Shown here: positions 2,316-23,283 of the stretch, in pieces
Position numbering within the stretch: position 1 is the first letter of the stretch
How the letters are laid out: each line of letters opens with the position of its first letter
Virus record (IMG/VR): IMGVR_UViG_3300013118_000260
Coordinates: 1-33,626 of that record
From: a virus
Taxonomy: Duplodnaviria > Caudoviricetes
DNA: 33,626 nucleotides
Direction: 5' to 3' (one strand)
The notes under the pieces: generated by a model
What the model was told of the DNA's origin: nothing
The model's database searches: none
What the model saw: only the letters and a program-made list of their open reading frames with translations
Position numbers and translations under genes: made by a program

Positions 2316-2575
2316 GGTAAGTCAGGGTCTTTTAACTTAGCAGCGATTACATCCTCGATATACACTGAGGTCATAAAGTACCCTGGCTCTGCTGTTGTCC
2401 GATACTCACCTGTAGCTGCTTTAATAGCCGTACCTGTAGCGATAGGGAAACAGCTGTTATCACGCAATACATAAACAACTGTCTTACCGCACCCACTACC
2501 TACGGTTAATGCGATTAAGGCTACGAGTAAGCTGGTCGCTATCTCCACTCTTAATCGCTTCCTTTCCTTCTTCAT
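2312..2575 (-). CDS. Lipoprotein, putative o-spanin (Rz1-like)
   Basis: Basic N-terminus, hydrophobic core and lipobox-like VGSG|C; overlaps the upstream TM gene out of frame at the end of the late operon. Confidence 0.6.
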   Translation of the reverse strand: MKKERKRLRVEIATSLLVALIALTVGSGCGKTVVYVLRDNSCFPIATGTAIKAATGEYRTTAEPGYFMTSVYIEDVIAAKLKDPDLP

Positions 2576-2702
2576 AAAGTTTCTTCCTTATTTGGCGTTT
2601 ACGCAATATTCGTTCTCTAATAAACGCTATTATGTTACCTACCCAGCCGAATAATGTACGCAAAAATCCTAGCACTATCCCAATAGTAGATAGTATGCTC
2701 AT
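2496..2702 (-). CDS. N-terminally anchored protein, putative i-spanin (Rz-like)
   Basis: N-terminal hydrophobic segment and basic helical tail; overlapped with the lipoprotein gene. Confidence 0.5.
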   Translation of the reverse strand: MSILSTIGIVLGFLRTLFGWVGNIIAFIRERILRKRQIRKKLYEEGKEAIKSGDSDQLTRSLNRINRR

Positions 2703-2760
2703 ATAACTGCTCCAATCTTAACGTTTCCAGTAACCCATGAAGCCAAGAGACGATCTCTCT

Positions 2761-2946
2761 TTATTTTTTTTTTGAAGTCCCAATAGTGAGAAGCTTATTA
2801 ATAGCAGCAATAGCTTTCGCCCACATCTCATCGTCTTTCTTCGTAGGTGTCAGCTTAACGATACCGCTAATAACTATCTGTAATCCACCCCAGATAGCCA
2901 GTATTTCAACAATGTTACTCTTTAACCACGCTAACAAACTAGCCAT
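2761..2946 (-). CDS. Putative holin
   Basis: 61 aa; TM segment followed by IVKLTPTKKDD, a pattern seen in small phage holin-like proteins; basic C-terminus. Confidence 0.55.
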   Translation of the reverse strand: MASLLAWLKSNIVEILAIWGGLQIVISGIVKLTPTKKDDEMWAKAIAAINKLLTIGTSKKK

Positions 2947-2960
2947 AAGTTACCTCCTTT

Positions 2961-3890
2961 TCACTGTATTGTGCTTGGATGCCGCCTATATGTCCTGATA
3001 CATTCTTTGTACGCAGGTTTAGTACAAACAGACCATTCACCGCCGTTTTCCCATGCGTACACAATAGCGATTGATATTTTGTTTGCGGTAAACCTGTCTA
3101 TACACTTTTTGTAATGGGCTATTTTAGTAGCTTCATCCCTGTCACTACCAAACTCACCAATAATAATTTGCTTCCCCGGGTCAAGCTTCCTACATTGCGC
3201 TAAATTAGTATAGAACTTCTTATCACCGTAGGTATGGAAATTCCAATAATCTATTAACGGGACAATACCTAAATCAGCTAACCGTTGTCTGTAAGTTAAA
3301 GCACTTACGGATTTTAGATTCGTACCTTCTTTGTCTTTAGCACCACCAGCTAATCCTCCCAGAGTTACCTTGATATTAGGATCAACAATTTTCAATCTAT
3401 TTCTGAACTCAGTAAAAATATTAAAGTATCTATCCGGGTCTAAATAGTTACTTGGATAGTCAGCCCACGGTGGCACCATTAAATTAGGCTCGTTCCAACA
3501 TTCGTATATAACCCCGTCACTACGGAGGAACTTAGCATAGTGTTCAGCAACAACCGGCGTGTTCTCAGCATTGTTTCTATCGGCAATAAGTAACACTACC
3601 CAGACACCTCTGCTCCTATACCACCGGACTCTATTAACTGTTCGATTAAAGTTATCCAGAGTAGCACCTGCTAGCCTAACAAACTGTGGCTTTATTGTCT
3701 TAAACGCTTCTACATGGTTTTCATTTGTGGAAATCACATATCCTAGAAGAGGTGGGACTGTTCCGTCACCGTCTTCATTATCATCATCGTCACCGCAACG
3801 CAGGAAACCACGCATGTGAGTGCAACAAGCTTTCTTGAGAAGGTATTGACGCCGGCAATGGATCTTATGGATAGCTTCTTTCCAATTCAT
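2961..3890 (-). CDS. Clan GH-A (GH5/GH39-like) TIM-barrel glycoside hydrolase
   Basis: Acid/base motif YECWNEPN, NFHTY, nucleophile motif IIIGEFG, late YAW; SD GAGGTG. Confidence 0.8.
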   Translation of the reverse strand: MNWKEAIHKIHCRRQYLLKKACCTHMRGFLRCGDDDDNEDGDGTVPPLLGYVISTNENHVEAFKTIKPQFVRLAGATLDNFNRTVNRVRWYRSRGVWVVLLIADRNNAENTPVVAEHYAKFLRSDGVIYECWNEPNLMVPPWADYPSNYLDPDRYFNIFTEFRNRLKIVDPNIKVTLGGLAGGAKDKEGTNLKSVSALTYRQRLADLGIVPLIDYWNFHTYGDKKFYTNLAQCRKLDPGKQIIIGEFGSDRDEATKIAHYKKCIDRFTANKISIAIVYAWENGGEWSVCTKPAYKECIRTYRRHPSTIQ

Positions 3891-4032
3891 GTATCACCTC
3901 TTTCAGGCATTTGCTACATACCCAGTAAGTGCCAACCAACATTTCGGAAGGTTTCTTTAAATAATCACGTAGCTGTACTTCAATGTTTTCTTTTGTCCAT
4001 TCACCGCAACGAGAACATAGTTTAGTATTCAT
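3865..4032 (-). CDS. Small Zn-finger protein (55 aa)
   Basis: Hand translation MNTKLCSRCGEW...WVCSKCLKEVIHELERSYP; not in the ORF track; no SD. Confidence 0.55.
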   Translation of the reverse strand: MNTKLCSRCGEWTKENIEVQLRDYLKKPSEMLVGTYWVCSKCLKEVIHELERSYP

Positions 4033-4040
4033 ATTTTAAA

Positions 4041-4171
4041 GGCGGAGGTGCAGGCTATAAAACCCCGTGTCTTAACAAACACGATCATCGTAGCCGGAGC
4101 TACATTGATGCCGTATCACCTATTTGATAGGCTATTATTTTATATGTTGGATTTGCCTACGTTCCTCCGCC
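4041..4171 (-). ncRNA. Candidate multi-branched structured RNA, family unknown
   Basis: Outer stems GGCGGAGG/CCUCCGCC and GUAGGC/GCCUGC; inner stem UAUAAAA/UUUUAUA; three hairpins, one with a C(UCCG)G tetraloop. G-U pairs fit the minus strand. Confidence 0.5.
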
Positions 4172-4342
4172 AATAGCTTGGTATCCTGCTTGAGCAAAGA
4201 ACTCATTTAAGAGCACTTGATAGTCACCCATATCGTTGCGTAACTTCTCCATATCACTGTTCACCCTCTCCATATCTTTACGCAAGATTGTACCCTCTAT
4301 AGCAATGTTTTTCATTGTGTGTAAAAGATCGTTATCTATCAT
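4157..4342 (-). CDS. Hypothetical protein (61 aa)
   Basis: ATGA overlap with the upstream gene; helical. Confidence 0.55.
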   Translation of the reverse strand: MIDNDLLHTMKNIAIEGTILRKDMERVNSDMEKLRNDMGDYQVLLNEFFAQAGYQAIGGGT

Positions 4343-4584
4343 TTGAATAACTTTATAAGCCCATATATAACCGCTATCGTTCCAGGTACGCCCAGGGCAA
4401 GAGCAATCATTCTGTGTGTGTGTCCCTTAGCCTCTTTCATACACCCATTCTTCCTGTCCATTAACTTCTCTAACTGGGTACGTACAAACCCCCACTGTTC
4501 TGAGGATCGAGAATCGTGTGCGTCCCATCGTTCCGTCATCTGCGTCTCTAACCTAATTATGCGTGATATCGTCTGGTCGCTCAT
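4339..4584 (-). CDS. Coiled-coil protein with C-terminal TM (XhlA/holin-like)
   Basis: RIIRLETQM coiled coil and a C-terminal hydrophobic helix; lysis-cassette context. Confidence 0.55.
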   Translation of the reverse strand: MSDQTISRIIRLETQMTERWDAHDSRSSEQWGFVRTQLEKLMDRKNGCMKEAKGHTHRMIALALGVPGTIAVIYGLIKLFK

Positions 4585-4789
4585 ATGCCCTCATCATCTT
4601 CATTATAGTGCGTAACTCAGCCTGTATCTCCTTCATCTCAACTACGTCCTCTGATATCTGTTCGAGCTTACGGTCAATCTTATCTTCACGCCTAACCACA
4701 CCACGATTAACACTCTCGTTAGTGTAGGCTGTATAAGCGTAAGAGCCTATGATTAAGGTAGTTACTAAGCCCCAAAGTATGTTTTTCAT
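4553..4789 (-). CDS. N-terminal TM plus coiled-coil protein (holin/antiholin-like)
   Basis: Start reassigned to MKNILWGLV (ATG 4789, SD AGGAG); KIDRKLEQI coiled coil. Confidence 0.55.
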   Translation of the reverse strand: MKNILWGLVTTLIIGSYAYTAYTNESVNRGVVRREDKIDRKLEQISEDVVEMKEIQAELRTIMKMMRAYERPDDITHN

Positions 4790-5413: not shown

Positions 5414-5650
5414 ATGAATATGAGAGCAATTACTCACGTTGTATTGTTTGTTGTTTTTCATGGGTTTCTATTGCTTACCTTCATTGTTGCCGCAGACAAT
5501 TTTCTTGAGTTAGTCAGTCAAGGGCCATTTGCAATTAAATACTTTGTAAAACTCATTCCTCTCTTGGCCATCGTTATCTTAGCAAAATACATCTATACTA
5601 AAATAACGCCATTAAACAAAAGCAAATTGTTTTTCCTCATGAATAAATGA
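5414..5650 (+). CDS. Two-TM membrane protein (moron-like)
   Basis: SD GGAGG before the ATG at 5414; two hydrophobic helices. Confidence 0.6.
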   Translation: MNMRAITHVVLFVVFHGFLLLTFIVAADNFLELVSQGPFAIKYFVKLIPLLAIVILAKYIYTKITPLNKSKLFFLMNK

Positions 5651-8567
5651 GATCTTTAAGTTCCTTCGGGATAGAACTCTTCTTGTCTAGCCTCTTAAGA
5701 TATTCAAATTTTTCTTCTGTTGTTTCACGCTTATTTAATTCATTTAATAGTTTTATTTGATATGCAGGATTCCTAGATTCAGATCTAGTCTTTGTTATTA
5801 TCTTTCTTATATGTTTTTCTTTCTCTATATCATTTAATTCTTGGTAGCCAGGAAGACTAATTAATGATTCCAATCTCTTTTTCATAAGCTGCCCTTCTAC
5901 CAAGGTCATTCTGTTTCTTTCTTCTGAAGACAATGGTAGACCTTTATACTTTTTCCCTATTTTTGTTGGGAAAATATCTAATCGCCTCAATTCTTCATCT
6001 ACGCTACTTATTTCATCCTTTGATATTCTAAAAGGAATAGCTGGCGTTCTCCGTTCAACCTTCTCTCCAAACACATCCATCTTAGGCTCAACCGTTTCTG
6101 ATAAGAATGGCAATCGTGCTTTAATGGTTTCAGGAACAGTGGTTGTTTCTCTAATGTAAGGATCTTTTAAGTTACCAATATAATTCAATAAGCCAGGAGT
6201 AAACATGCCTGAAATAATCTTTCTCCCCCAAGAAGCTCCATACATTTCAGGATTAGACATTGCTCTAACTAAGTTAGTGAGTCCTTGCAAATAGGTTTTA
6301 TTAGTTAATGTCTTACTCAGTCCACTCAAAGAATCCATGACTTTTTCTGCTGGCATTTCCTTTTCAGAGTTAGAATATCTATCAATTAAATTCGCTACCA
6401 TAGCAAAAGAACTGCCTATTGGTTCAATCCGTTCCAAAGGTATCCAATGATCAAAAAGCTTTATAGAATTTGGTTGTTTTCCCTCTCTGTAAAACATTTC
6501 CCTTTCCCCCTTGTTAGAAGGAATATCACCAGTAACATTGCCTCTAAAATATTGAAACCCAATCCAAGTAGCCGCAACTGAACTTGCACCTAAAAGCCCC
6601 ACCCTCTGCGCTAGTTGTTCTTGTGTTGCTGCTTTACCAAGAAAAGCTGCACCAAGAATAGTTCTCTCTATTCCAGCATTAATAATATCGGCAGGAGTTT
6701 TAACAAAGGGAATAAGCCATCTTAACCCAGGAATGTTCTTGCGTAATTTAAGTAAAGATTTTGCTATCTTTCCTGGTTGATTTTGGAAAGTTCTATATAG
6801 TTGTTCAGTTTTAATTTTCCCTAATCCAGTTAATCCTTTTTCGCCAAACTTGCGTATGCCTACTCCTTTTCTATATGCTTGAGCAAACTTTTCCATTCGA
6901 CCTATCATACCCTTGCCTATATCATCTTCTAGTTGCAGCAAGCTAGTAGGCAACAATTTCTTCCATCCCCTACGAGCGACCATTTCTTCAAACTTAGATC
7001 CAGCAACTTTAGGTACTTTACCCTTATGAAACAAACCCTTTATCATTGCTGGGATTTCACCAAAGAATACTTTTCGTTTTCCAGTTAAAGGAACCTTGCC
7101 TATACGTTTAACCCCTAACTTGCCTAAACCAGTTAATCCTAAATCTGCTACTGCTTGAGTAAATTTTTCTGGTATCTTCGCTAAAGCAAACAGGGCGTTA
7201 CTTCCTGTATTAACCATGTGAGTTCTAGGATCGGAAAGGATACTATTTAACCAAACAAAATATGCGTTATCAATCATTGTAGGATTAAAGTCTTTAGACA
7301 ATACTGTTTTCTTAAAGTCACTTAATCCCTTTATTAATGTTTTTTTAGCTTCTTTAGAAATTATAGGATCAGTTTTAATGTTTTTCATCTTAGCCAAGAT
7401 CATCTCAGATATTACTCGTTGTTCTTTTATTGGAATTTTAAATTGCTCTAAAGCTCCACCAACTTCAAACGCTGCTCTGGAAATCTCTCTAGTTTGTTTG
7501 TGCGCCAAATAATCCTTCATTGACCTACCCAAATCACCTAAGTCTGTCATTAACAAATTACGTATAGCCTTATCTTCTCCCTGACGTACCTTTAATACTT
7601 CTGCCCTTAATTGACCTTCTGGCATTTGGAATAGCCGCTTTAAGACAGGTGTGTTTTCTAATCTACTTGCTAAACTTATAGTCTCTTTATGTGAAATAGA
7701 TTTGTGTGCAGCTAAAGCAGGTTTTGCAGTAACTAATTCTTTTATTCCGTGCTGAACTTCTGGTTCATATTTCGTGAGATTAATATTCCCAATCTTAGGT
7801 AATTGTTCATCTGGAACAGGAACCTTTATTTTGGCAGCAATCTTCTCTTCTGGAACCACTGCCTGTATAGCAGGGGCAATGCCTTTTGCTGTAGGCGTAG
7901 GTTTTAATAACCCTGCTTCTCTCATTACTTCTCTGGCAGCACTAGCAGGGTGTAAAGGTACTTGCTCGGCTAATAGTCCTCTTGTAAACGTAGGAACAGT
8001 CTTAGCCAAGAATCTTCTTCCCCCAGGCGTGCTGGCTAACTTCCGCATTGCAGCCCCTCCTCCTTTAGTTAGGGCATACTCCCCTAGCCAAGTAGAAGGC
8101 TTAGTTGTTAAGCCAGCTGTTTCACCAGCCATTCTTGCAGCAAACATAGCAGGCCATGAGGTACTTTCTTCTAAGCCAAATCCACTTACTGCTATATCTC
8201 CAAAATCCCCTCCTCTAACCTTTTCTATTGTTTCTAAATCTTTAGGTGCACCAGCTAAAGCCCATTTAACCGCTTCCTCCCCTTCCCTGAAATAGTTCTT
8301 AGCAACAACCTTTTCTTCTGGGGTAAGCACCTGTTTCTTGCGAAACCTATTAAGGAAATCTAAGGGGGCTACATCTAAAACAGTACGGGCAATAGCCCCG
8401 CCTATAGATGCTTGCTTAGGGGCTGGTTGCTCAAAAAGATCAGGGATAACCATGGATTGTTGCGGAGGAGTTGCTTGATCGTACAAATTTGGAGAAACTA
8501 ATGATTCTGGTTTAGCTGTAGTATCTTCATCAAATAAGTCAACTATAACATAATTATCTTTTGGCAT
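5637..8567 (-). CDS. Large internal virion / DNA ejection protein (976 aa)
   Basis: Last and largest gene of the post-nozzle block; helical and basic; IPFVKTPADI, a hydrophobic stretch and D-x-F-G-E motifs resemble podovirus ejection proteins. Confidence 0.65.
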   Translation of the reverse strand: MPKDNYVIVDLFDEDTTAKPESLVSPNLYDQATPPQQSMVIPDLFEQPAPKQASIGGAIARTVLDVAPLDFLNRFRKKQVLTPEEKVVAKNYFREGEEAVKWALAGAPKDLETIEKVRGGDFGDIAVSGFGLEESTSWPAMFAARMAGETAGLTTKPSTWLGEYALTKGGGAAMRKLASTPGGRRFLAKTVPTFTRGLLAEQVPLHPASAAREVMREAGLLKPTPTAKGIAPAIQAVVPEEKIAAKIKVPVPDEQLPKIGNINLTKYEPEVQHGIKELVTAKPALAAHKSISHKETISLASRLENTPVLKRLFQMPEGQLRAEVLKVRQGEDKAIRNLLMTDLGDLGRSMKDYLAHKQTREISRAAFEVGGALEQFKIPIKEQRVISEMILAKMKNIKTDPIISKEAKKTLIKGLSDFKKTVLSKDFNPTMIDNAYFVWLNSILSDPRTHMVNTGSNALFALAKIPEKFTQAVADLGLTGLGKLGVKRIGKVPLTGKRKVFFGEIPAMIKGLFHKGKVPKVAGSKFEEMVARRGWKKLLPTSLLQLEDDIGKGMIGRMEKFAQAYRKGVGIRKFGEKGLTGLGKIKTEQLYRTFQNQPGKIAKSLLKLRKNIPGLRWLIPFVKTPADIINAGIERTILGAAFLGKAATQEQLAQRVGLLGASSVAATWIGFQYFRGNVTGDIPSNKGEREMFYREGKQPNSIKLFDHWIPLERIEPIGSSFAMVANLIDRYSNSEKEMPAEKVMDSLSGLSKTLTNKTYLQGLTNLVRAMSNPEMYGASWGRKIISGMFTPGLLNYIGNLKDPYIRETTTVPETIKARLPFLSETVEPKMDVFGEKVERRTPAIPFRISKDEISSVDEELRRLDIFPTKIGKKYKGLPLSSEERNRMTLVEGQLMKKRLESLISLPGYQELNDIEKEKHIRKIITKTRSESRNPAYQIKLLNELNKRETTEEKFEYLKRLDKKSSIPKELKDLIYS

Positions 8568-8570
8568 AAA

Positions 8571-9452
8571 TTATAACAACCTTTTTCTATTTAAAGCATC
8601 AATGATTTCATTTCTATCTTTCTTGTACGCATCCATGTTCTGTTGAATCATCCTTTCTTGTTCTGCTGTATAACCAGCTTTTAATTCTTTCTTTATTTCT
8701 TTTTCTGGCGTTTCCAATCCCCAAGCTTCTCTAACTGCTTGCTTCACAAGATCCTTCTCTTCTTTCTTTTGTTCTTTCTGTGTTATTTTTTCTGGCTTCA
8801 TCCAGCTTGGCATATTCGCTGATTTCCCAGTAAGCTCCTTAATCTTATCCCTGTTTTCTTCCCATGCCCTCCTAGCTGCTCCCTTAAACTCTTCCATCTG
8901 ATCAGCTGGATACTTACCCTGTGGTATAGCAGTTCTTCTAGCTTGGTACGCTTCCCGTAAATTCTCTATATCCTGCCAATAGGGTTGCGTAGCACCATAC
9001 CTTGCTGTAGTTGCATCTCTCTTTCGTGCCAATGCTTCATTTGCTAAAGATTTAGATTGAAGATTCTCTATCTGCGCTTGCGTTTTATCACTAGCCAAAG
9101 TATCCTGGGGAGCTACCTTAAAAGAAGGTCTGCCTGCTTCGTCATATTCAATGCCTATATCATATTCACCCGTACCAGCTAGATTAGCCATTTCTTTGAA
9201 CATGAACTTATTCTCTTCTTCTTTCTTTTTCTTTGCTGTAACTCTGGCAAATGAACCTAGCGCACTCTGCCAAGGATCAGGTTGCGCTTCTCTCATATAC
9301 CCTAAATTAAAGTATTTACCCATGCCAGATATGGGAGTAGGTTGCTGACCGAAATCACTGAACCCACCTGCTATATCACCCAGCAGATTTAATATAGGGT
9401 GTTCTTGCTGGAACCTATCTCCAATGCCAAGAATATCACTTAAAGTTGCCAT
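8571..9452 (-). CDS. Putative internal virion / ejection protein (293 aa)
   Basis: Synteny; Gly-rich N-terminus and coiled coil; SD AGGAGG. Confidence 0.55.
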   Translation of the reverse strand: MATLSDILGIGDRFQQEHPILNLLGDIAGGFSDFGQQPTPISGMGKYFNLGYMREAQPDPWQSALGSFARVTAKKKKEEENKFMFKEMANLAGTGEYDIGIEYDEAGRPSFKVAPQDTLASDKTQAQIENLQSKSLANEALARKRDATTARYGATQPYWQDIENLREAYQARRTAIPQGKYPADQMEEFKGAARRAWEENRDKIKELTGKSANMPSWMKPEKITQKEQKKEEKDLVKQAVREAWGLETPEKEIKKELKAGYTAEQERMIQQNMDAYKKDRNEIIDALNRKRLL

Positions 9453-9462
9453 TCAAAACCTC

Positions 9463-9690
9463 CTAAAATGATTGCGGCCAAGGACTACCACCAGGTAAAT
9501 ATTGATCTATTGCACCAAACCCACCAAAAGCTCTGCCACCACCATAATTCTTTTTCCAATCTAAATAAGGATTACCAGTATCCGGTAAGTCAAACTGGCT
9601 GCCCCCCCCTCCTCCTCCGCCAAATATGTCACCAAAACCAGGGACAAATTTATCAAAAATGCGACCACCAAAATCAAATATTCTATCCAT
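9463..9690 (-). CDS. Gly/Phe-rich ORF, in-frame continuation of 9703..10908 past one TAG
   Basis: TAG AAA TCC AGT TTT ATG is in frame; no SD before the ATG at 9690. Confidence 0.45.
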   Translation of the reverse strand: MDRIFDFGGRIFDKFVPGFGDIFGGGGGGGSQFDLPDTGNPYLDWKKNYGGGRAFGGFGAIDQYLPGGSPWPQSF

Positions 9691-9702
9691 AAAACTGGAT
9701 TT

Positions 9703-10908
9703 CTACGCTTGTTCTGCGTAATCTCTACCATATTGAAGCTCTAGGTTTCTCCAATAATCCCGATTTTCCAATTCAAACCTGTTCCATTGATCTTGTAAAT
9801 CCATCCCGTATCTAGTTGTATCAGCTTGATACTTCTGCATCTGTTGTTGCTGTAACAATCTATCCCAAGCACCCTGCTCACCAATCTGACCGAGGTACTT
9901 TTGAATATCTCTTCCGTATACATCAACACCAATCCCCTGCTGTCTGAGCAAGGTATCCATCATCGTCTTATCCCAATCTAAACCCATACGTTGCGCTAAT
10001 TCAAATGCCTCCATTTCTCTGCCCTTGCCTCGTTCCCAGATATCGCCTCCAAGCTGCATCCCGAACTGACCAGCACCCATAGCCTGCCCCGTTAATCCTG
10101 CCTGTGCTCCTATCCCATACTGTTCCTGCCCTGCTATATCCCCAAACACCCCTCTCTTAGCAGCAAACACATCTCTTGGGTATTGGTAGAGGTACTTGGA
10201 AAACTCCTGGTTATACATATCATCGTATTTCTCTTGTAACTTCGTCCATTGTTTAGCTGACGGGGTACTCCCCATCATGCCATGTGCAGCACTAATAGCT
10301 TTCCATTTACTTTCAGATTCAGCACGTTCATCTTCTATCTGTCTTTTATATGGATCTAAAATACGTCCAATAGTAGCTTCCTGGGCTGCTGACGGTATTA
10401 AATCAGCTAAACTCGTCAATTCAGTTTCCCTTGTCCCTGTCCTACTAACGAAATCATCTATCATCTGCTGAGTAGCTTGATACCCTACATCAGCCCTGCC
10501 ACCAAACAAATCAGCATAATCCAATGCTCTCTGCATCATAGGACTCTCTTCAGCCAATATCTGTTCCATCATTGTCCCAGCTTGAGCTTGACTGAAATCA
10601 CGTTGAGCCATTAAATCCTGCATCATTATAATACTCCAAGGATCTGAATAAGTAGGTTCGGTGATATCAAGAAACTGTGGATCTATTGTTCCTGGAGCAC
10701 TAGGAGCAGTTACCCCCGTTGTCCCCTCACCTTCACCTTCTTCACCGCTAATGGTTACACCACCGCCAGGAGAAGGTGCTGGTGTAGTATCTCCACCACC
10801 TGTGTATATCCAGATAGATTCTCCAGTATAACGATCTGGCCCAAAGAAATTCCACCCTGGTTCGTTTGGACGGTACTTACTTCGCAGTTTATCGCCTACC
10901 TTAGCCAT
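9703..10908 (-). CDS. Putative internal virion / ejection protein (Gln/Gly/Met-rich)
   Basis: Composition and AAHGMMGST motif resemble podovirus pilot/ejection proteins; first of the three-gene block. Confidence 0.6.
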   Translation of the reverse strand: MAKVGDKLRSKYRPNEPGWNFFGPDRYTGESIWIYTGGGDTTPAPSPGGGVTISGEEGEGEGTTGVTAPSAPGTIDPQFLDITEPTYSDPWSIIMMQDLMAQRDFSQAQAGTMMEQILAEESPMMQRALDYADLFGGRADVGYQATQQMIDDFVSRTGTRETELTSLADLIPSAAQEATIGRILDPYKRQIEDERAESESKWKAISAAHGMMGSTPSAKQWTKLQEKYDDMYNQEFSKYLYQYPRDVFAAKRGVFGDIAGQEQYGIGAQAGLTGQAMGAGQFGMQLGGDIWERGKGREMEAFELAQRMGLDWDKTMMDTLLRQQGIGVDVYGRDIQKYLGQIGEQGAWDRLLQQQQMQKYQADTTRYGMDLQDQWNRFELENRDYWRNLELQYGRDYAEQA

Positions 10909-10919: not shown

Positions 10920-12047
10920 TTATTCTAACGCTTCTATACGAGCCTCTAACTCTTCTAATTTAGCTTGTGCATCTTCAGCCCAAATTGCTGTTCCTATAGC
11001 AATCCGGCAAATATCTTTACCGTAAAGATCAATTTCAATCTCTTGGATTGTCTTATCAGGATATTCAGTTTGCAACTCAATAAGTTTTCCTTTTTTAGTT
11101 TCCAGTTCATCTATCACTTCCTGGTTCTTATCAGGTTTATTTTTTTCTTTATTTATATTCCCTTCTAAATGTTCAAGTTCATTCTTACCACTTATCCCAT
11201 CATACGGTTTAGCAGGTTTCTTAGCATCTTCTAATGCCCAATCAAGGTAATCCGAGGCTGTAGCATCTTTAGCTTTCTTACCTTTCTTTTCCATGTGCTT
11301 ATCAATCTTAGGAGAGAACGTTGTCCATGAATTATCTGCATATCCGTTACCATTAGATGCAAAATAAAACTCTAACGAATTACTAGGATCATTAAATTCA
11401 AACCGTATGTTATTATTAGGATCATCGGCCATCAACAACGTTAAATCAGTGTCATCACTGCCAATCCTTTGAAAATAAATAACAGAAACATCATTGTCAG
11501 AATTATGAAACTCTATACCTTGGGTGTCTACCCCTGCACCAGTATAAATCAACGCACCATCTGAATCAAAATAAGTTGTTGCATTGTGCATAACAATATT
11601 GCCAGAACTACTAGGATCTATAGTAATATCTCCACTAGAACCGTCAGCAATGAGTATGCTTCCAGAATTTGTGCCAGCATTGGTATTAAGAGTCAAATCA
11701 CCAGTACCTTCAGTCGTCAGCGTTACATCTGTATCTAAATCCCCAATAGCAACCGTATCAGCAAATAAATTCACATCACCAGTACCATTAGGGGTTAAAT
11801 CCAAATCACCATTAGCGGTTGTTACTATATCGTTACTCCCTACATCCATAGTCAATGCACCGGTCATTGTACCGCCTGTTTCATCTAGCTTGGTTGTACT
11901 AGCCGTAGATACAGCATTGAAATCTGCGGTAATAGCATCCGCATCTGCCACAGCACCGTTAGTGTATGTGTTCTGAACAGAGTAATCACTAGCATAAACC
12001 TGTGCCGCTAATATTGTTCCACATAGGACTAAAACCAATTTCTTCAT
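10920..12047 (-). CDS. Tail fibre/needle-like protein with an N-terminal signal peptide
   Basis: Start reassigned to MKKLVLVLCGTILAAQVYA (SD GGGAGGAG). TYTNGAVADADAITADFNAV resembles a fibre attachment segment, followed by GGTMTGAL and LTPNGTG beta repeats and a chaperone-like coiled-coil end LEARIEALE. Confidence 0.65.
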   Translation of the reverse strand: MKKLVLVLCGTILAAQVYASDYSVQNTYTNGAVADADAITADFNAVSTASTTKLDETGGTMTGALTMDVGSNDIVTTANGDLDLTPNGTGDVNLFADTVAIGDLDTDVTLTTEGTGDLTLNTNAGTNSGSILIADGSSGDITIDPSSSGNIVMHNATTYFDSDGALIYTGAGVDTQGIEFHNSDNDVSVIYFQRIGSDDTDLTLLMADDPNNNIRFEFNDPSNSLEFYFASNGNGYADNSWTTFSPKIDKHMEKKGKKAKDATASDYLDWALEDAKKPAKPYDGISGKNELEHLEGNINKEKNKPDKNQEVIDELETKKGKLIELQTEYPDKTIQEIEIDLYGKDICRIAIGTAIWAEDAQAKLEELEARIEALE

Positions 12048-12057: not shown

Positions 12058-13650
12058 CTATTGATCCCCGTAATATTCACTACGTCTAATACCTTGTAAA
12101 TAAACTATAAACCCATAGAATTTAAAGTATTCATCCAAATCATCATTCCCGAACCTGAACTGTATACCCCAACATTCTTTATCAATCTCTCTGCGTAACT
12201 TAACATCATCTTCAGAACCCCATACGTCTGTACCCCACACCATTGTTCCCCATAAATTAGAAGCTGGGGTAAGGTCTAAAGTTCCAGAAGTCCAAGTGCT
12301 CCCTGAATCAAGACGGTAATAATCATCTAGTTCCCACGCACCACTGCCTTCTGCATAAACGTATTCGTAACGTATGTGCTTCATCCACGCTAAATCAAAC
12401 GTAAACCGTTTAGTGTCAAAAGTAGCGTCTATCGCTGCACTGTTATCATTAGTGCCAGTATACATTCTAAATACAGTTGAATTGTAATCAGAAGAATAAA
12501 TAAACTGTTCTAAAGTTGTAGGGTCTGTAACAGTTGTCATTTGCCCTGGAACTAACCCAGTCCAATCACCTAACCAAGCATCCAACAAATAGTCATAAGC
12601 TAGAATAACATTGTTCTGAGTAGCACTACCGTCACTAACACCCAACAAGTAATGGTCGTAATCTTTGAATACCACACTAACAGAATCGTCTAGGCGAGCA
12701 GGGTTAATAGCGTTAATATCAGTGTCTATCCGGTCAGATATTTGCGACACACTTGTGCCCTCTAACTTGTACACACCATCATAGGCAAGAAACAGAATCA
12801 TGTTATCTATGTTCTGAATACTCTTGTTACTTATACACCCTACATTTGAATTGAGTTTTGATACTACCCAATTAGTGTCTGTAGGGTCTGAAGCATCCAA
12901 AACATAAATTGACCGTTTCTTGAATATAACCAGATAGTTATTGATTGTAGTACCACTGTACTTCAACTCAGCTAATCCAGTAATCTCATCACCGTCATTA
13001 AAATCTATCTGAATTGTCCCGCCACTTGTAAAATCATCTGCCTCTAAAACGTCTGTATAAGATAGTCTGTTAGGAAAATCATCATTGCCGGCAGCCCATA
13101 ATCTGTTGCGGTGTACTATCTGGATAGCATTAGCTTCAGCTGTAGGAAGTTCTGTGGTCGTAGCAGAGGAACCATCCCAGTATACAGGGGTAGCTCCATC
13201 ATCCATAGCAATCGCTACTGTATCCCCATTGGTAAGCACAAAGGTGGTAAATGTAACATTATCACAGGTGAAACTAGTATTTATCGTATCCCATGTACCG
13301 TCTAACCCATCCATCTTGTAAAGATAGTTATCGTCTGAAGCGCACATGAAATAACGGTTGCCATCAGGAAGAGCAAAATCATGGAACCCTACTACATCTC
13401 CGGTAACAGCAACAGAATTAAGAACTGTTGCCATGCCGGGACGGGTGAGAATACTCCCTTCATCAAAATAAACATTCTGTGCAGAGGCAAGCTCCCGATC
13501 ATCAATCATCATTGGATTGAGAGCTTTATTAACACCTTTAGTTAGGCCAAAATACTTCTGTGCTTTAAGATTGTCCTGCGCTAGAGCTACCCTACACGTC
13601 AGCAGAACGGCGAGTAGTAGTATAAGTTTTTTCCAATTCAGTCCACGCAT
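12058..13650 (-). CDS. Tail nozzle / tail tubular protein B-like (P22 gp10 / T7 gp12 type beta-propeller) with a signal peptide
   Basis: Start reassigned to MRGLNWKK (SD GAGGT). Motifs AQNV..ILTRPG, HRNRLW, DGDEITGL, LVIFKKRSIY, VGCISNKSI, FLAYDGVY, ISDRI; follows the adaptor gene. Confidence 0.75.
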   Translation of the reverse strand: MRGLNWKKLILLLAVLLTCRVALAQDNLKAQKYFGLTKGVNKALNPMMIDDRELASAQNVYFDEGSILTRPGMATVLNSVAVTGDVVGFHDFALPDGNRYFMCASDDNYLYKMDGLDGTWDTINTSFTCDNVTFTTFVLTNGDTVAIAMDDGATPVYWDGSSATTTELPTAEANAIQIVHRNRLWAAGNDDFPNRLSYTDVLEADDFTSGGTIQIDFNDGDEITGLAELKYSGTTINNYLVIFKKRSIYVLDASDPTDTNWVVSKLNSNVGCISNKSIQNIDNMILFLAYDGVYKLEGTSVSQISDRIDTDINAINPARLDDSVSVVFKDYDHYLLGVSDGSATQNNVILAYDYLLDAWLGDWTGLVPGQMTTVTDPTTLEQFIYSSDYNSTVFRMYTGTNDNSAAIDATFDTKRFTFDLAWMKHIRYEYVYAEGSGAWELDDYYRLDSGSTWTSGTLDLTPASNLWGTMVWGTDVWGSEDDVKLRREIDKECWGIQFRFGNDDLDEYFKFYGFIVYLQGIRRSEYYGDQ

Positions 13651-14686
13651 GTAACCTCGACTTTTCTTTGCCACGCCATTTGACACGGCTATTAAATAAT
13701 TTAGCGTCATGTAAACTCATCATATAATCCGCTTTAGCATCTGCCATTTCAGCTATCCCTTTCTGATGCTGAGTGAATTTCCAATAAACATAATTCATGA
13801 TAATCGGATGAAATACTTTCTGGAACGGTAACTGCTCGTTATTGTTGTTTACTCTCAAAAACTTACAGTAATATTTAAGATTAATAATATATTCATCGTC
13901 AGGCGCAGGGTAAAGCAACACTCTCCTGCAAGGAGCAGGATCTATCTCATATGCGCTCGTACTAGCACTCATACCAGTTTTATGAACGGTAAGGGATGTG
14001 CCACTGGCTACCGCTGTAATCCGATACTCAATGTCATTAGCATCAACAATAAGAACCCTTCCCACCATCGTAGAATCCCAAGCTGTACCACTTCCCGTAA
14101 CAGTTGCACCAGAATTAGTAATAGTCCCAGTAGAATAATATGCAGAATCAGTCCATTCTGTCTCAATAAATTTCTGAGGTTCATCGCTATTAAACTCTCC
14201 CTTGTTATACCAAATATCCCAAACTTGAGAATCCTTCTCTAACGGTTCCTCATATCTGAACATAGCTTTAGTAGCAATGTAATCGTACGGTAAATCATAC
14301 TCGTCTTGGTATAACTCAAAGGTCAGGCCAGCTGTTGTTGTTCCCGTAAACGCTAAATCTAATGTAAGCTCAGTTGTAGATACAAATGCTGATATGCGGT
14401 ATATATCATCCACACCAGTTACCTTAATCTTCCTACCCACCATAGCAGAGGTAAATGTAGTTCCACTGCCAGTAAGAGTGGTAGAACCGTCTGTTACAGT
14501 GACAGTACCAGTTTCATAAGGGGCAATAGTACGGAAACGATACTCTCTTACTTGACTCTCAAACAAGTGCCGGCACATATCCTCAACCGCACTGTTCACC
14601 CATAAGCGAACACTGTTACGCCCGTCTGTAGTGTCTTTAGCACCACTACGTCTAAATGCTTCTTGATAAACTTCCAGAAGATTCAC
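13592..14686 (-). CDS. Head-tail adaptor (tail tubular protein A-like) with two inserted beta-rich repeats
   Basis: Helical N-terminus, YDLPYDY, LLYPAPDDEY, FHPIIMNY; duplicated TGT-x-T...GSGT...MVGR unit; GTG start with SD GGAGG. Confidence 0.7.
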   Translation of the reverse strand: MNLLEVYQEAFRRSGAKDTTDGRNSVRLWVNSAVEDMCRHLFESQVREYRFRTIAPYETGTVTVTDGSTTLTGSGTTFTSAMVGRKIKVTGVDDIYRISAFVSTTELTLDLAFTGTTTAGLTFELYQDEYDLPYDYIATKAMFRYEEPLEKDSQVWDIWYNKGEFNSDEPQKFIETEWTDSAYYSTGTITNSGATVTGSGTAWDSTMVGRVLIVDANDIEYRITAVASGTSLTVHKTGMSASTSAYEIDPAPCRRVLLYPAPDDEYIINLKYYCKFLRVNNNNEQLPFQKVFHPIIMNYVYWKFTQHQKGIAEMADAKADYMMSLHDAKLFNSRVKWRGKEKSRLHAWTELEKTYTTTRRSADV

Positions 14687-14698: not shown

Positions 14699-15133
14699 TT
14701 ATAAAGGCACTGCTTCAACAGATAGTTTCTTTCCTTTACGCCAATCGTTAAAATCTTCGTTTAATTTCTTGCCACCACCACGATAAATGAACTTCTTTAT
14801 CTTCTTGTTGCCAGCCTCAGAATTAGCGTTCTGGCTGGTATATATCCCTTCAGCTGTATCAGAGAAGATACATTTGGTTATCTTGCCACTCTTGTTCTTC
14901 TTGATATACACATAGTCTTTCGGGGTAAGCTCGTTCTCGATAATGTAGGTAGCTACGTCATTAGTGCCGTAGATCGTATCCCTGAGAATAATGCCGTACT
15001 CACTCTTACCGTTAGCATGTTTAATCTGCCAAATTTCGCCGAGATAATCTGCACCAAACGCATGTAAACACACAATGAATATCGCACCTACTGTAACAAG
15101 CAATAACACTACTTCATCCATTCTTAATCTCAT
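14699..15133 (-). CDS. Hypothetical protein with a signal peptide or N-terminal anchor
   Basis: VVLLLVTVGAIFIVCLHAFG|ADY; Lys-rich mature part. Confidence 0.55.
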   Translation of the reverse strand: MRLRMDEVVLLLVTVGAIFIVCLHAFGADYLGEIWQIKHANGKSEYGIILRDTIYGTNDVATYIIENELTPKDYVYIKKNKSGKITKCIFSDTAEGIYTSQNANSEAGNKKIKKFIYRGGGKKLNEDFNDWRKGKKLSVEAVPL

Positions 15134-17175
15134 TATCTACCTGCCTCGTAAAGTTCACTTACTTGTGCCGATGATAATCCACGACTATAGAATCGTACAT
15201 CATCTATCGTGCCATCAAAATAAGCATTATATCCTGCGTTTCGGTATCCAAAAATAACATCAGAAGAATTATCCAAATCATCAGCAGATGCACCTAATCC
15301 ATCTGCACTGCCATCTATATACAAATACACATTAGAACCCACTCTCGTTGCAACTACATGATGCCATGTATTCAACGATATAGTACCCGTACTAGTAGCA
15401 TCACTAACCGCATCTACTCTCCATGTTAATGTGCCAACTTCATTTCCATTTACTTGCAAAGCATATTCATTCGCATTTTCCGGGTCGCCTTTACAGAGAA
15501 TCGTCTTATGCTGACTAGCCGCCGCATTAGTATCCAGATTTATCCATGCAGATACAGCAAACTCTCCCGTACTGAAATCTAAACTATCGGCATCACTTAC
15601 CGTAATGTATTGACTTGACCCATCTAAGTCTATTCCTTCCTTGATTTGCGCTGGAACTGTACTTGGAGAACCAGTAGTGGTACCGTTATTGCCTTCATTT
15701 GACTTATCATATACCGTAGTTCCGTTGACATCATTGGCATCCATAGGCAAACCCAATACTAAGTCTACACGGGAAGCTGCACTTATTTCTACAATCCTAT
15801 CAGCACTTAGAGCAGCTACTTCATCAGCCGTTAACAATCTATCCCATACTTTAAGATAATACCAATTACCCCTACCAGCCCAAGAACCATTACCGCCAGC
15901 ACCAAACAGTTGAGTTACCGCTCCCTGTGCCCAGGCAGTCGTATCTTGATTAAGTATCTGCGTACCGTTCATGTAAAAATCTGTTCTATCAGTAGTTGCA
16001 GAACTTACAACAACAAATATGGTTGTTTCGTTAGCCGCCCACTCACCTTCAAATGAAGCAGTAGCAATAGACTCTATTAACGTACCGCCTAAAGTTACGT
16101 CTAAGTTATTATCGCTAGGTCTTTTTAAGCTATATTCAGTTCCACTACTATCAAACACTGGTCTATTATTGCCATCATCAGCTGCAAAATTAGGTCTGTA
16201 TTTAACAGCAATAGATATTTCCGCCCCTCCACCAATAGGGTCAGTACCAGGAGAGTAAGAGATATGGTTTGCTGCTCCACCGCCAGTGTATTGCACATAC
16301 CCGTCAGAACCTTCTACAAACACCATTACTCCTGTTTCAGTACCATTTAAATCACTACCGCCGGTATCGTAAACCGTATCTGTAGCGTTATTGTTGCCGA
16401 AACTCCACTCCAACGTCATTCCCTCACGGCTGACAGCATCATTTTCTACTATCCTATCAGCACTTAAATCCGCTATTTCAGCAGCCGTAAGTAACCGTTG
16501 CCACACTTTAAAATCATGCATTTCCCCATCGAAACAACTTCCTCCAATATAACTGGAACCAATGTAAATTGTCGCTGGATCATCCGGTGTCCATGCAGTA
16601 GCTTCTGAATTTTGTATCTGTTCTCCATTTAACCAAATATTGTTGTCCCCTGTAGTCCCAGAATAAATAAGCACATTCTTCTCGTCTGCTAACCAATAAT
16701 CTTCATAAGTAGCAAGTGCTACTGTGGTTAATACAGTATTGCCTATCATAGCAACCAATGAATTACTTTGTGCTCCTGCCTGTTTAAATATCCCGTATCT
16801 AGTGTTTGCATCTGCCCCATCCGAAAGCACATAATATGAACCATCATTAGCGGCAAAATCAGGAGTAAATACATACATAATGCTACAATTAGCAGTGTTA
16901 TATACTCCCGTACCTGTGCCAGAAAAATGATTATTATTCGAGCCAGGAAAATCTACCCCCGTAACAGCAAATGTAAGCGTACCTGTTTCCGTCTGGTTTA
17001 AGTCGGATCCCCCAGTATCGTACACCGTATCCGTACCGTTGTTGTTACCGAAATCCAACTCTAAATTTAAATCAGCACGGCTAACAGGATCACTCTCAAT
17101 TATCCGTGCTTCGTTATTAAAAGAAATGCAACAAATCGTTAATAACGTAATGCTTATTAAAGTTTTCTTTAGCAT
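15133..17175 (-). CDS. Triple LamG/concanavalin-A-like domain protein with a signal peptide (putative receptor-binding or fibre protein)
   Basis: Three repeats ending FDGEMHDFKVWQRLLT, YLKVWDRLLT and FDGTIDDVRFYSRGLS; WHHVVAT and LYIDG LamG motifs. Confidence 0.85.
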   Translation of the reverse strand: MLKKTLISITLLTICCISFNNEARIIESDPVSRADLNLELDFGNNNGTDTVYDTGGSDLNQTETGTLTFAVTGVDFPGSNNNHFSGTGTGVYNTANCSIMYVFTPDFAANDGSYYVLSDGADANTRYGIFKQAGAQSNSLVAMIGNTVLTTVALATYEDYWLADEKNVLIYSGTTGDNNIWLNGEQIQNSEATAWTPDDPATIYIGSSYIGGSCFDGEMHDFKVWQRLLTAAEIADLSADRIVENDAVSREGMTLEWSFGNNNATDTVYDTGGSDLNGTETGVMVFVEGSDGYVQYTGGGAANHISYSPGTDPIGGGAEISIAVKYRPNFAADDGNNRPVFDSSGTEYSLKRPSDNNLDVTLGGTLIESIATASFEGEWAANETTIFVVVSSATTDRTDFYMNGTQILNQDTTAWAQGAVTQLFGAGGNGSWAGRGNWYYLKVWDRLLTADEVAALSADRIVEISAASRVDLVLGLPMDANDVNGTTVYDKSNEGNNGTTTGSPSTVPAQIKEGIDLDGSSQYITVSDADSLDFSTGEFAVSAWINLDTNAAASQHKTILCKGDPENANEYALQVNGNEVGTLTWRVDAVSDATSTGTISLNTWHHVVATRVGSNVYLYIDGSADGLGASADDLDNSSDVIFGYRNAGYNAYFDGTIDDVRFYSRGLSSAQVSELYEAGR

Positions 17176-17184: not shown

Positions 17185-17721
17185 CTATTCTAAATGTGCT
17201 TCTATTTTGACATCTATAATCTTTACGTTTGTATCTACATTCGTGTTGTTAACATCAAAACTCATTGAATACGCAAAATCAGCCAAAGTAACATCTCCCG
17301 TTAATATGGTTTCACTTGCATATCCACTTCCTCCATTTCCTATATTTGCTTCAGAAGCATCTGACGTTACAGTACCATCGTGGTCAGCACGATAAAGATC
17401 AAAATCAAAATCATCACCATTATCAGCTGTATAATAATATACGGTTATTTGGTCTAAAACTACCGTACCACCAAACATTTGATACGGAACACCTAGTGGA
17501 GCGTAAATCGTATCATTAACAGTGTCTGGATATATCATGTTTGCACTACTTTGTTCAATCGGCTGTCCTGTGATGAATAAAAAATCTGCAAATCCTAAAT
17601 GCCACACAAATGTTGCATCCGATACTTCTCCGCTTGCATGTCCAGCACCACCTACTTGTACTGCAAGAACAGGTGTGCAAACCAATGTTAAACCAAGCAC
17701 CAAAGCTATTAAATTACGCAT
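17185..17721 (-). CDS. Beta-rich acidic virion-associated protein with a signal peptide
   Basis: MRNLIALVLGLTLVCTPVLA|VQ; SD AGGAGG. Confidence 0.6.
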   Translation of the reverse strand: MRNLIALVLGLTLVCTPVLAVQVGGAGHASGEVSDATFVWHLGFADFLFITGQPIEQSSANMIYPDTVNDTIYAPLGVPYQMFGGTVVLDQITVYYYTADNGDDFDFDLYRADHDGTVTSDASEANIGNGGSGYASETILTGDVTLADFAYSMSFDVNNTNVDTNVKIIDVKIEAHLE

Positions 17722-17730: not shown

Positions 17731-20070
17731 CTAGTTATCTGATCTGGATAATTCATACCATTCCGTATCGGTAAGGTCGTAATACAGCTGTATCGTATCC
17801 CCTAACCCAAGCGTGAAATCAATACCGCCACTAAGTTGTAAATCACTATTTGCAAGATTGCTCTCATCCTGCAAAGTAACAGTATTGGTGTCATTAGTGC
17901 CGATAATCATTACTATCTGCCCGTCCCTAGCACCTGCCTCCAACGTAGGCGTACCAGTAAGCGTGGTTGCAGCACCAGAACCATATACCCTGATAGAAAC
18001 GCTATCGGTAGTAATTGCTGTACCTGCTGCCATGCTATATGTCACAGGAGCAGCCCAGAACGCTCCATGTAACTGCACACCATCGTCCGTAACAGAACCG
18101 TCACCATCGGCATCAGCAATTACATCAAATACAGGGAATCCATCTACCGCAAAAGAATATCCTACATCATCACCACTTGAAGCAGTGGTAGTTGACGGTA
18201 CGTCCATTGAGATAGAGTAACTATCGTCAGGCATGTCAATCTTACCAGCTAATAGATTATTAATACTTACACCACTTCCGGCAACAGCTGATATGTTTAA
18301 ATCACCTACACCAGTCGTAATGTATGCGTTTGTGTCATCGTGATAACTTTCTATGTAATCAGGGTCAGAGCCAATTGTCTTACCGGGGCAATAAACATAT
18401 ACAGAACCATCATCTCCATTACCGCCAGTATCGTTGTTTCCAGGCTGTAACACTACATTACCGCCATCACCGCCTACCGTTTCCAATAGGTTAGCGTCAC
18501 CGCCTTGTAGAACCAATGTGCCACCATCATCATTAGTTGTATCAGAAGCATCCTGATAGGCAGTTTGTGCAACCAATGTCATATTACTAGTTGCTTGATC
18601 TCCCGACCTAGTACCTTGTGAAACACTTGGAGCTGAAGCACTCGCTGACCAAGAAACAGTAGAATTATTTAAGATTAAAACACTATCAATTGTTGTATTA
18701 ACCCCTGATCTACCAAGAGTTAACGCTGTTTGTGTCGCTGTACCAACATTCAAAGCTGTAGCTGTAACTGTATCAATAGTTCCGTCAACTAGAACATTAC
18801 CATCAAAACGACAACTGCCATCATCTACCCACATAGCATAAGCGTTAGTAAGCGTCATATTAGCACCAGCTGCCGGAGCGTTATCAATATAAACCGTAGC
18901 CGCATCTGTTATCGTTAATGCACCACCTGCATCACCAATGTAGGTTGGACGTAAGAACTCTATTTCACGTTGCGTGGCTAACGGCCCAGCACCAGACGCC
19001 CATGTCTTATTAGCGGAAAAATCAAAAGTAACTCCAGTTACTTCTGTAGCCGCTGTTAAAGCCGTATGTGCGCCTCCTGTAACGCTAAATGCTATTGGTG
19101 TACCAGTACCAGCTCCTTGAGCTATAATCAATCCACCTAAATAATCAAAATATGCAACCTCTGTTGTAAGCCCATCAGGATATAAACTCAATATCTTATC
19201 ACCTGCTGTTGTTAAACTAGTTTCATTTCCAATTTGTACTCCAGCCACTCCACCGCCATCCGCTACATTACCCTCTACAGAAAGAGCACCAGCGGAAACA
19301 GTCTGAAGTATATTTGATTTAAAACTATCAGTTATCCCGGACAATGTTACTACCCCCCCATTAGGGTCAAACGTAATGTCACCTGCGCCTGTTGTAATTA
19401 CACCATTAGTTTGATTGTGAGTAAAAGCAAGCCAATCTGCTACAGTCGCCTGATCTGATGATTGGATAAATAAAGTCGGATTTGTAGATTGTGTATGTGC
19501 GAAATTTGTACTCTGATCCCCTGCTTCACAAATTGTTAAATGTCTACTAGCAGTGGCTAACGTTAAAAACAGCGAATCTACCGTCTGTGCTGTATTAAAC
19601 GCAAAACTACTATCGTCACTATCGCCACATGCGAGAAGTACATCATCTGGAATATTTACGATACTGTTATTTGTGTCAACAATCAATATGTCACCAGCAT
19701 CACCGTTCTGACGAATAAGTAATGCTTCATCAGCATCTACATCAACGGTTAAAGCCGCTTCTAAGTTTTGGGCTAAGGAGATTGTGGTCGTACCATCAAC
19801 AACGAGATCGCCATTCAAACTTACATCACCTTCTCTGGTGAGGCTAATACCAGTGTCTCCATATCCACCACCAATTTCAACACTGTCAGCAGTAACGCCA
19901 TTATCTGTCTGAATACCGCCATCCCCGTCAATGTCGCAGCCGGTCTGTCCGTACCCACCGCCTACTTTAAGGTAGTTGAAACGTTTCGCCTGCTCCCATC
20001 CAGCTTCCCAACAGAAAGCAGAACCACTGATTAGTACAATCCCCGTTACGATAGCCAAAACCTTCTTCAT
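17731..20070 (-). CDS. Long Gly/Asp/Thr-rich fibre-like protein (779 aa) with a signal peptide
   Basis: MKKVLAIVTGIVLISGSAFC|WE; beta repeats (GGTLVLQGG, GGNVVLQPG); C-terminal fibre-tip-like domain ending WYELSRSDN. Confidence 0.7.
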   Translation of the reverse strand: MKKVLAIVTGIVLISGSAFCWEAGWEQAKRFNYLKVGGGYGQTGCDIDGDGGIQTDNGVTADSVEIGGGYGDTGISLTREGDVSLNGDLVVDGTTTISLAQNLEAALTVDVDADEALLIRQNGDAGDILIVDTNNSIVNIPDDVLLACGDSDDSSFAFNTAQTVDSLFLTLATASRHLTICEAGDQSTNFAHTQSTNPTLFIQSSDQATVADWLAFTHNQTNGVITTGAGDITFDPNGGVVTLSGITDSFKSNILQTVSAGALSVEGNVADGGGVAGVQIGNETSLTTAGDKILSLYPDGLTTEVAYFDYLGGLIIAQGAGTGTPIAFSVTGGAHTALTAATEVTGVTFDFSANKTWASGAGPLATQREIEFLRPTYIGDAGGALTITDAATVYIDNAPAAGANMTLTNAYAMWVDDGSCRFDGNVLVDGTIDTVTATALNVGTATQTALTLGRSGVNTTIDSVLILNNSTVSWSASASAPSVSQGTRSGDQATSNMTLVAQTAYQDASDTTNDDGGTLVLQGGDANLLETVGGDGGNVVLQPGNNDTGGNGDDGSVYVYCPGKTIGSDPDYIESYHDDTNAYITTGVGDLNISAVAGSGVSINNLLAGKIDMPDDSYSISMDVPSTTTASSGDDVGYSFAVDGFPVFDVIADADGDGSVTDDGVQLHGAFWAAPVTYSMAAGTAITTDSVSIRVYGSGAATTLTGTPTLEAGARDGQIVMIIGTNDTNTVTLQDESNLANSDLQLSGGIDFTLGLGDTIQLYYDLTDTEWYELSRSDN

Positions 20071-21780: not shown

Positions 21781-22170
21781 TTACGCATCTTCCATTCTGT
21801 AAAAGTAAGCGGTGACTAAAGTATCCGTTTGATTTCCTGCCTGTCCGGTGATAAGTATACGGATATAGTTCATCGGCACAGCACTAACACTGGTAATGAA
21901 ATATGTTTCCTGGGTAAGGTTAGTTACAATATCCGGTGCACCGTCAGGAATAACGTAGTTTGTATCCGCTGAACCTTCAGTTGTGGGTCTTGTGAAACTC
22001 TGCTCATACTGCACCAGCAGGTCAGGGGTTCCCAGAACAGAAGTAGCCACAATCGCAATCCCGAAATTAGTTCCATGAGAACCAATATCGATTGAATCGC
22101 TTCTTACCGCCCCAGTACCATTAACCAACTCCGCACTAAATATCGTAATATTTCCACCAACTCTAGCCAT
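21781..22170 (-). CDS. Small beta-sandwich virion protein (possible spike/fibre base)
   Basis: Alternating beta strands, YIRILITG; the function is inferred from position only. Confidence 0.45.
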   Translation of the reverse strand: MARVGGNITIFSAELVNGTGAVRSDSIDIGSHGTNFGIAIVATSVLGTPDLLVQYEQSFTRPTTEGSADTNYVIPDGAPDIVTNLTQETYFITSVSAVPMNYIRILITGQAGNQTDTLVTAYFYRMEDA

Positions 22171-23269: not shown

Positions 23270-23283
23270 TATCCACCATCCTT

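Follow-up and report, generated by a model that had tools for sequence, protein, structure and literature searches.

In known podophages the tail is assembled in the cytoplasm, and the textbook view holds that tailed phages complete their particles there before lysis. The host Sec pathway is used by the coat proteins of filamentous phages and, among tailed phages, by endolysins and spanins that carry a signal. Filamentous phages are alike in their use of Sec, but they extrude single-stranded DNA and have neither portal nor nozzle, whereas exported endolysins and spanins are not parts of the virion. Filamentous-type features also appear in the accessible part of 10.64898/2026.09.15.751708. The closest described counterparts of the protein considered here are the nozzles of Pseudomonas phage Pa223 (9nwi), Vibrio phage VP1 (gp16, 8zkk), cyanophage A4 (9k09), Pam1 (gp8, 7eeq), P22 (gp10, 8u10) and T7 (gp12, 6r21 and 9jyz), which share its fold along the entire mature chain. 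The gene order of adaptor, nozzle, fibre and ejection proteins is common to this locus and the known podophages. Unlike the known podophage nozzles, whose N-termini were compared by profile alignment, the protein has a 24-residue signal-peptide-like leader before the fold.

The window, meaning the whole stretch that was analysed, is an entire virus contig of 33,626 bases. Parts of a 45,606-base IMG/VR record that has direct terminal repeats match it at 99.99-100% identity. Matching public sequencing runs are labelled as marine; of 11 such runs, 4 contain at least half of the words of the contig, 2 of these 4 may be its source, and no RNA run was listed among them. The minus strand encodes terminase, portal, capsid, tail, three ejection proteins and a lysis-like block, and the phage is a standard short-tailed phage (podophage). 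The nozzle gene is located between the adaptor gene and the fibre and ejection genes. The features are as follows.

30711..32399 (-): terminase large subunit, leaderless (phrog_2, 3e-20)
27658..29520 (-): portal protein, leaderless (PF23899 SU10_portal, 5e-21)
24435..25331 (-): major capsid protein, leaderless (PF25209, 4e-8)
23339..24406 (-): 355-aa protein right after the major capsid gene, putative leader (head-fibre-like by eye; no family)
22163..23296 (-): O-antigen-ligase (Wzy_C/WaaL/PglL)-like membrane protein, candidate periplasmic glycosyltransferase (PF04932, E-value 1e-4, below the cut-off)
17731..20070 (-): 779-aa fibre-like protein, putative leader (from sequence)
17185..17721 (-): 178-aa protein, putative leader (from sequence)
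15133..17175 (-): Laminin-G-repeat receptor-binding-like protein, putative leader (PF13385, 8e-43; orthologue in the relative L118)
14699..15133 (-): 144-aa protein, atypical hydrophobic leader (from sequence; no family match)
13592..14686 (-): portal adaptor with two inserted fibre-like beta domains, leaderless
13650..12058 (-): nozzle open reading frame, 530 aa
13579..13650 (-): putative Sec/signal-peptidase-I leader of the nozzle, residues 1-24 (in the model an isolated helix, residues 5-24, followed by a low-confidence linker)
12058..13578 (-): mature nozzle, residues 25-530, platform and beta-propeller (Foldseek and profile matches)
10920..12047 (-): post-nozzle fibre-like protein, putative leader; in alignments the Met of leaderless orthologues falls at its mature start
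5637..10908 (-): three ejection (internal virion) protein genes, leaderless (the largest phrog_6651, 9e-28; the other two by position)
2312..4789 (-): lysis-cassette-like block (layout by eye: small membrane proteins, hydrolase, spanin-like overlapping pair)

The sequence-only reading had proposed a nozzle of the P22 gp10/T7 gp12 type that carries a signal peptide next to an adaptor that does not, and both assignments were borne out. Foldseek matched the nozzle model (pLDDT 88) to 9nwi_Y (TM score 0.75), 8zkk_O (0.68), 9jyz_P of T7 (0.65) and 8u10_1 of P22 (0.63), with E-values from 5e-27 to 4e-13 for tail chains of Pa223, VP1, A4, P22, Sf6, Pam1 and T7, and a profile search retrieved 9k09_U (1e-20) and 8zkk_O (6e-10). 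A single-sequence search of the PDB with the nozzle gave no matches, and Pfam and NCBIfam assigned no family to the nozzle and none to at least 26 of the 29 aligned relatives, with only three stray weak matches. In the model, a signal-peptide-like helix made up of residues 1-24 stands apart from the fold, which starts from about residue 29. The conserved fold starts just past the leader, both in the model and in the alignment with leaderless homologs; neither the lack of a nozzle fold nor an alignment of the leader with a conserved element of cytoplasmic homologs was found. The adaptor fold, a helix bundle plus a beta domain of the type seen in T7 gp11, P22 gp4 and VP1 gp12, begins at residue 1 with no leader ahead of it. 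The adaptor gene begins with a GTG that follows GGAGGT; an in-frame stop lies directly 5' of the start, and no hydrophobic leader is encoded. A clear Foldseek match to the adaptor model was not found; the virions 9k09, 9nwi and 8zkk were common to the nozzle and adaptor searches.

The N-terminus of the nozzle reads MRGLNWKKLILLLAVLLTCRVALAQDN, with an n-region of net charge +3 followed by a hydrophobic core, A-L-A at positions 22-24 and then Q25. All sequence features of a Sec/signal-peptidase-I leader, namely a basic n-region, a hydrophobic core and small residues at -3/-1, are present according to our own hydropathy-plus-charge rule, which is not a trained signal-peptide predictor and under which the leader scores 3.7. 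The leader anatomy claimed previously is confirmed. As a chance control, the rule was applied to 397 open 30-mers starting with ATG or GTG, taken from all frames of the coding strand without excluding true starts; 34 of them passed and 4 reached a score of at least 3.5. Homology provides a stronger control, in that the four nearest homologs are leader-bearing as well (P0003, P0004, P0014 and P0016). A lipoprotein (signal peptidase II) or Tat signal was rejected, since a pattern search found a lipobox or twin-arginine motif in none of the 37 leader-bearing nozzles (0/37). The mature nozzle contains no second hydrophobic segment (best 19-residue hydropathy 1.15). Judged by these features, the nozzle is very probably exported via Sec and cut after A24. 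A contig from another run, which shares its study with a possible source run, spans positions 13460-13776 without a difference, and no sequence variants turned up within the overlap of the nozzle and adaptor genes.

The annotated start is preceded by a ribosome-binding-like GAGGT motif 3 nt before the ATG, and the nozzle start shares 59 nt with the 3' end of the adaptor gene, an overlap absent from the earlier description. The only in-frame ATG or GTG codons are at -19, -11, -7, 1 and 47/48. Starts at -19, -11 and -7 all lie upstream, so the hydrophobic segment is kept with each of them. Codons 2-46 include no in-frame ATG, GTG or TTG, and a start at M47 would remove the conserved family motif G39-x-N41. 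For this reason a leaderless nozzle is impossible from a standard alternative start, and an internal leaderless start was ruled out.

The search for nozzle homologs found 160 sequences, of which 152 were kept after removal of 8 fragments or sequences with odd starts. A leader was assigned to 37 of these 152 relatives, 33 by our rule and 4 by eye. The query falls into a well-supported clade of five rows, all with leaders, and a leaderless clade of 20 rows is nested among leader-bearing nozzles. Leader state requires 13 changes on the tree, at least six of which are forced by strong branches, and a single origin was rejected (AU p 3.7e-6, calculated on 43 of the 152 rows that were picked after the first tree). 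Going by these sequence-based calls, the leader is inherited and has been gained or lost several times, and since the nozzles of close relatives are leaderless, export would be a switchable state. The predicted leader is also an add-on to the fold. The median number of residues before the conserved G39 is 34 with a leader versus 18 without, in the 32 of 37 that have a predicted cleavage site a median of 14 remains before G39 once the leader is removed, and the profile match to the leaderless P0005 begins at residue 31 of the query. Leader-bearing nozzles have a median charge of +2 in the n-region and 0 after the core, which favours an N-in/C-out orientation. An A-x-A-type motif alone barely separates the groups, as it is found in 35 of 37 leader-bearing and 87 of 115 leaderless nozzles. 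No gain of cysteine was observed in leader-bearing nozzles (0.77% vs 0.80% in leaderless ones), and a disulfide adaptation of the exported nozzle was rejected on this basis. The leader call of L138 is probably an artefact, because the near-identical L139 and L140 start further downstream. Searches of GenBank phages with the nozzle returned only 22 and 10 distant matches, and the N-terminus of the MaAM05 match is leaderless. This leaderless nozzle-like gene of the record named Microcystis phage MaAM05 (L193; MW495066.1, 202112-219629) lies among lepA, proS and ftsH, and the region looks like bacterial DNA plus a small phage-like module.

Among the virion proteins of the window, our rule assigned no leader to terminase, portal, scaffold, capsid, adaptor or ejection proteins. 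The comparison with the post-nozzle fibre started from 131 dereplicated loci in which the start of the nozzle could be scored. In 45 of them a fibre domain could be scored too, after two further loci without a start had been removed, and 20 of these genes served as seeds of the fibre profile. The best PDB match of the fibre N-terminal domain had an E-value of only 0.16. Nozzle and fibre leader states were concordant in 45 of 45 loci (10 both, 35 neither), and the syntenic relative L118, with leaders on both proteins, adds one more case. This co-variation comprises only two independent pairs if strong branches alone are counted and four if the best tree is taken, with p 0.5 in a sign test. Because a leader is found on a core tail protein and switches jointly with that of the orthologous fibre, the leaders are not merely a matter of host-derived accessory genes, and the earlier argument to this effect holds. 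The proposal that the compartment boundary falls at the adaptor-nozzle interface was only partly upheld. It fits the window, and of the 17 leader-nozzle loci 16 include an adaptor frame, which is leaderless in 15. However, in L136 the adaptor-position protein (1857-2570) itself has a clear signal-peptide-like leader and precedes a nozzle that has one too, and the boundary there would fall at the portal/adaptor interface.

Leader state also differs between other genes of these modules. The protein encoded at 21781-22170 (-) is leaderless, whereas its orthologue in L118 (1148-1579, 33% identity) has a clear leader, which indicates that single genes can switch inside the exported module. The loci L031, L033 and L067 combine a leaderless nozzle and post-nozzle fibre with leaders on other large accessory proteins upstream of the adaptor and represent an intermediate leader state.

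With a predicted secretion signal on the nozzle and none on the adaptor, the tail tip is likely made outside the cytoplasm and would be joined to the head late. In the arrangement we propose, the host would have two membranes, nozzle and fibres would cross into its periplasm, and the portal, capsid, adaptor and ejection proteins would remain in the cytoplasm. The exported nozzle would fold and form hexamers in the periplasm, the ligase-like protein would glycosylate the exported parts, the packaged DNA would meanwhile be retained by a closed portal, and heads and tail tips would meet once the inner membrane is breached at lysis. That the two halves are made apart in this way and joined at lysis is, on the sequence features described, somewhat better than an even chance.

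The ligase-like protein resembles the WaaL/PglL O-antigen ligases and oligosaccharyltransferases (PF04932) in family signal and fold, and differs from them in that the copy in the window lies within a phage virion operon and scores below the Pfam cut-off (22-26 bits against the Wzy_C family, cut-off 31.7). Homologous genes pass this cut-off in 5 of 24 genomes and in L118, and the nearest Atlas cluster is Wzy_C, with Ca. Omnitrophota as the commonest taxon. A Wzy_C-like gene is present in 8 of 9 genomes with a leader-bearing nozzle versus 0 of 15 with a leaderless one, although 6 of the 8 ligase-bearing genomes belong to one clade and G003 has a leader-bearing nozzle without the ligase. In the WaaL/PglL family the active site faces the periplasm. 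Once exported, nozzle and fibres would probably be glycosylated, as judged from this gene content. Two genes past the ligase-like gene, a leaderless coiled-coil protein is encoded at 20899-21768 (-); in L023-L035 the ligase is followed by one or two coiled-coil-like genes, whose sequence similarity to 20899-21768 is undetectable.

The retention of packaged DNA is the main difficulty for joining at lysis. According to the accessible part of PMC6702177, the closed T7 portal is proposed to retain DNA briefly until tail assembly, adaptor binding then re-opens the portal, and the nozzle gates hold the DNA from there on. If that model applies, heads without a nozzle should leak unless the portal/adaptor of this phage differs. 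The problem would be solved if the portal/adaptor stays shut, if joining takes place at the membrane, or if some of the nozzle remains cytoplasmic. Other points against the proposal are the small number of independent switches behind the co-variation, the clustering of most ligase-bearing genomes in one clade, the unchanged cysteine content, the poor discrimination by the A-x-A-type motif, the adaptor leader of L136 and the missing ligase of G003; family searches of the complete record, moreover, recognised no peptidoglycan hydrolase.

Joining at the membrane is an unlikely reading, in which the leader would first anchor hexamers of the nozzle at the periplasmic side of the inner membrane and filled heads would dock from inside, with local crossing by budding or through a pore instead of mixing after the whole cell has lysed. 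Heads would then be unsealed for a shorter time. In solved nozzles the first strand of the fold opens the platform domain (available text of PMC13730344), and in the model the leader joins this first strand, so that an anchored nozzle would plausibly have its adaptor side towards the membrane. The complete record, in which no standard endolysin was recognised, is in line with docking. Against it stand a cassette of holin and overlapping-spanin-like genes (by eye), the occurrence of cell-wall hydrolases in relatives of either leader state, and the fact that neither an extrusion ATPase nor a channel was recognised; moreover, a 20-residue helix alone cannot pass a capsid.

Leaky export with two fates, in which a cytoplasmic share of the nozzle builds virions with the leader removed there or tolerated and the exported share acts as a decoy or in superinfection exclusion, would likewise solve the retention problem and is rather improbable. 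The end-to-end alignment of the nozzle with cytoplasmic forms, the unchanged cysteine content and the frequent switching of leader state are compatible with it. However, no internal start yields a leaderless nozzle, the leaders are strong and canonical on deep branches, and the outer parts all bear leaders together while the inner parts are leaderless. That the leader is a hydrophobic stretch read by chance from the end of the adaptor gene, or a propeptide for assembly that a phage protease removes, is very improbable, since the position of the leader within the 59-nt overlap, the close spacing of the ribosome-binding motif and the loose rule's acceptance of arbitrary starts are outweighed by relatives with overlaps of 1-4 nt and unrelated leaders of the same anatomy, by the loss of the conserved motif from the next start, and by family searches in which no maturation protease was recognised.

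Returning to split assembly with joining at lysis or at the membrane, the broader proposal is that widespread uncultured podophages build their virions across the inner membrane, with periplasmic nozzles and fibres that a phage-encoded ligase coats with glycan of the host and with a repeatedly flipped switch that can include the adaptor. Taken as a whole, this proposal appears moderately probable. If nozzle export is true, the genome-sealing step would move to another compartment or to lysis, which raises the question of how packaged DNA is held meanwhile. Export would also allow virion surfaces to be glycosylated in the periplasm and tail parts to be kept out of reach of immune sensors in the cytoplasm. 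Avs13 senses podophage nozzles, and Avs12 and other Avs proteins sense adaptor, portal and capsid (PMC12803255, available part). Concealment of the nozzle from cytoplasmic sensors such as Avs13 is a speculative benefit, and the lack of leaders on the Avs-sensed adaptor, portal and capsid of this phage counts against sensor evasion as a motive.

A cultured podovirus indicates that exported parts can plausibly reach virions. In Cellulophaga phage phi18:3 (KC821620), gp085-gp087 pass the leader rule, which corresponds to 3 of the 11 tested proteins that are annotated in GenBank as structural and MS/MS-detected. There, three accessory proteins have leaders, and the other eight tested are leaderless and none matched the nozzle or fibre profile, whereas in the window the DNA-sealing nozzle has a leader. 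A general export route is thus testable now in phi18:3, and the sister lineages with and without leaders offer a natural comparison. In the literature covered, which includes few subscription journals, nothing was found that describes the export of nozzles or fibres in tailed phages, and the accessible parts of PMC13452462 and 10.64898/2026.06.07.730766 contain nothing on exported virion parts. New in this analysis are the fold check of both partners, the repeated switching, the co-switching with fibre and ligase, and the adaptor exception.

Regarding the host, the relative G002, which is complete and has a leader-bearing nozzle, encodes an outer-membrane beta-barrel-like protein (E-value 2e-6, just below the cut-off) and a lytic transglycosylase with a leader, which together point to a two-membrane host with peptidoglycan. 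A scan of genome contigs gave two weak loci, a leaderless nozzle-like gene and a short partial match, and no host, and neither cluster look-ups of 30 of the 37 leader-bearing nozzles nor searches with ligase and fibre homologs returned a host organism. The commonest taxon of the ligase cluster is the sole lead, a weak one, towards an Omnitrophota host.

In the lysis-like block, a membrane-protein gene overlaps a lipoprotein-like gene in the manner of a spanin pair (by eye), and family searches found no holin, spanin or endolysin match. A GH5/GH39-like hydrolase (2961-3890 (-); PF00150, 5e-5) occupies the expected endolysin position. Just before a Cys that is followed by an acidic linker, a hydrophobic leader-like stretch is found in a neighbouring frame, identically in the full record, which suggests a lipoprotein signal out of frame. 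Among selected candidates, cell-wall hydrolases occur in relatives of both leader states, and the presence of an endolysin does not separate the states. In relatives with and without a nozzle leader, small leader-bearing cell-wall enzymes (RlpA-like DPBB_1, Hydrolase_2) are encoded outside the virion operon at L196:5061-5477, L207:1821-2246 and L214:8959-9336. A small HNH-like gene, assigned by its motif by eye and with no convincing family match, lies on the opposite strand of the late region (4855-5160 (+)), and the part of the genome beyond the window contains a Cpn10 co-chaperonin gene (L003:11067-11471 (-); PF00166, 5e-9). The first ejection-protein gene (9463-10908 (-)) is split by a stop into 401 and 75 aa. 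In matching records this protein is an unbroken 481 aa with one base different at the stop, which is likely a sequencing error or a rare variant of the contig.
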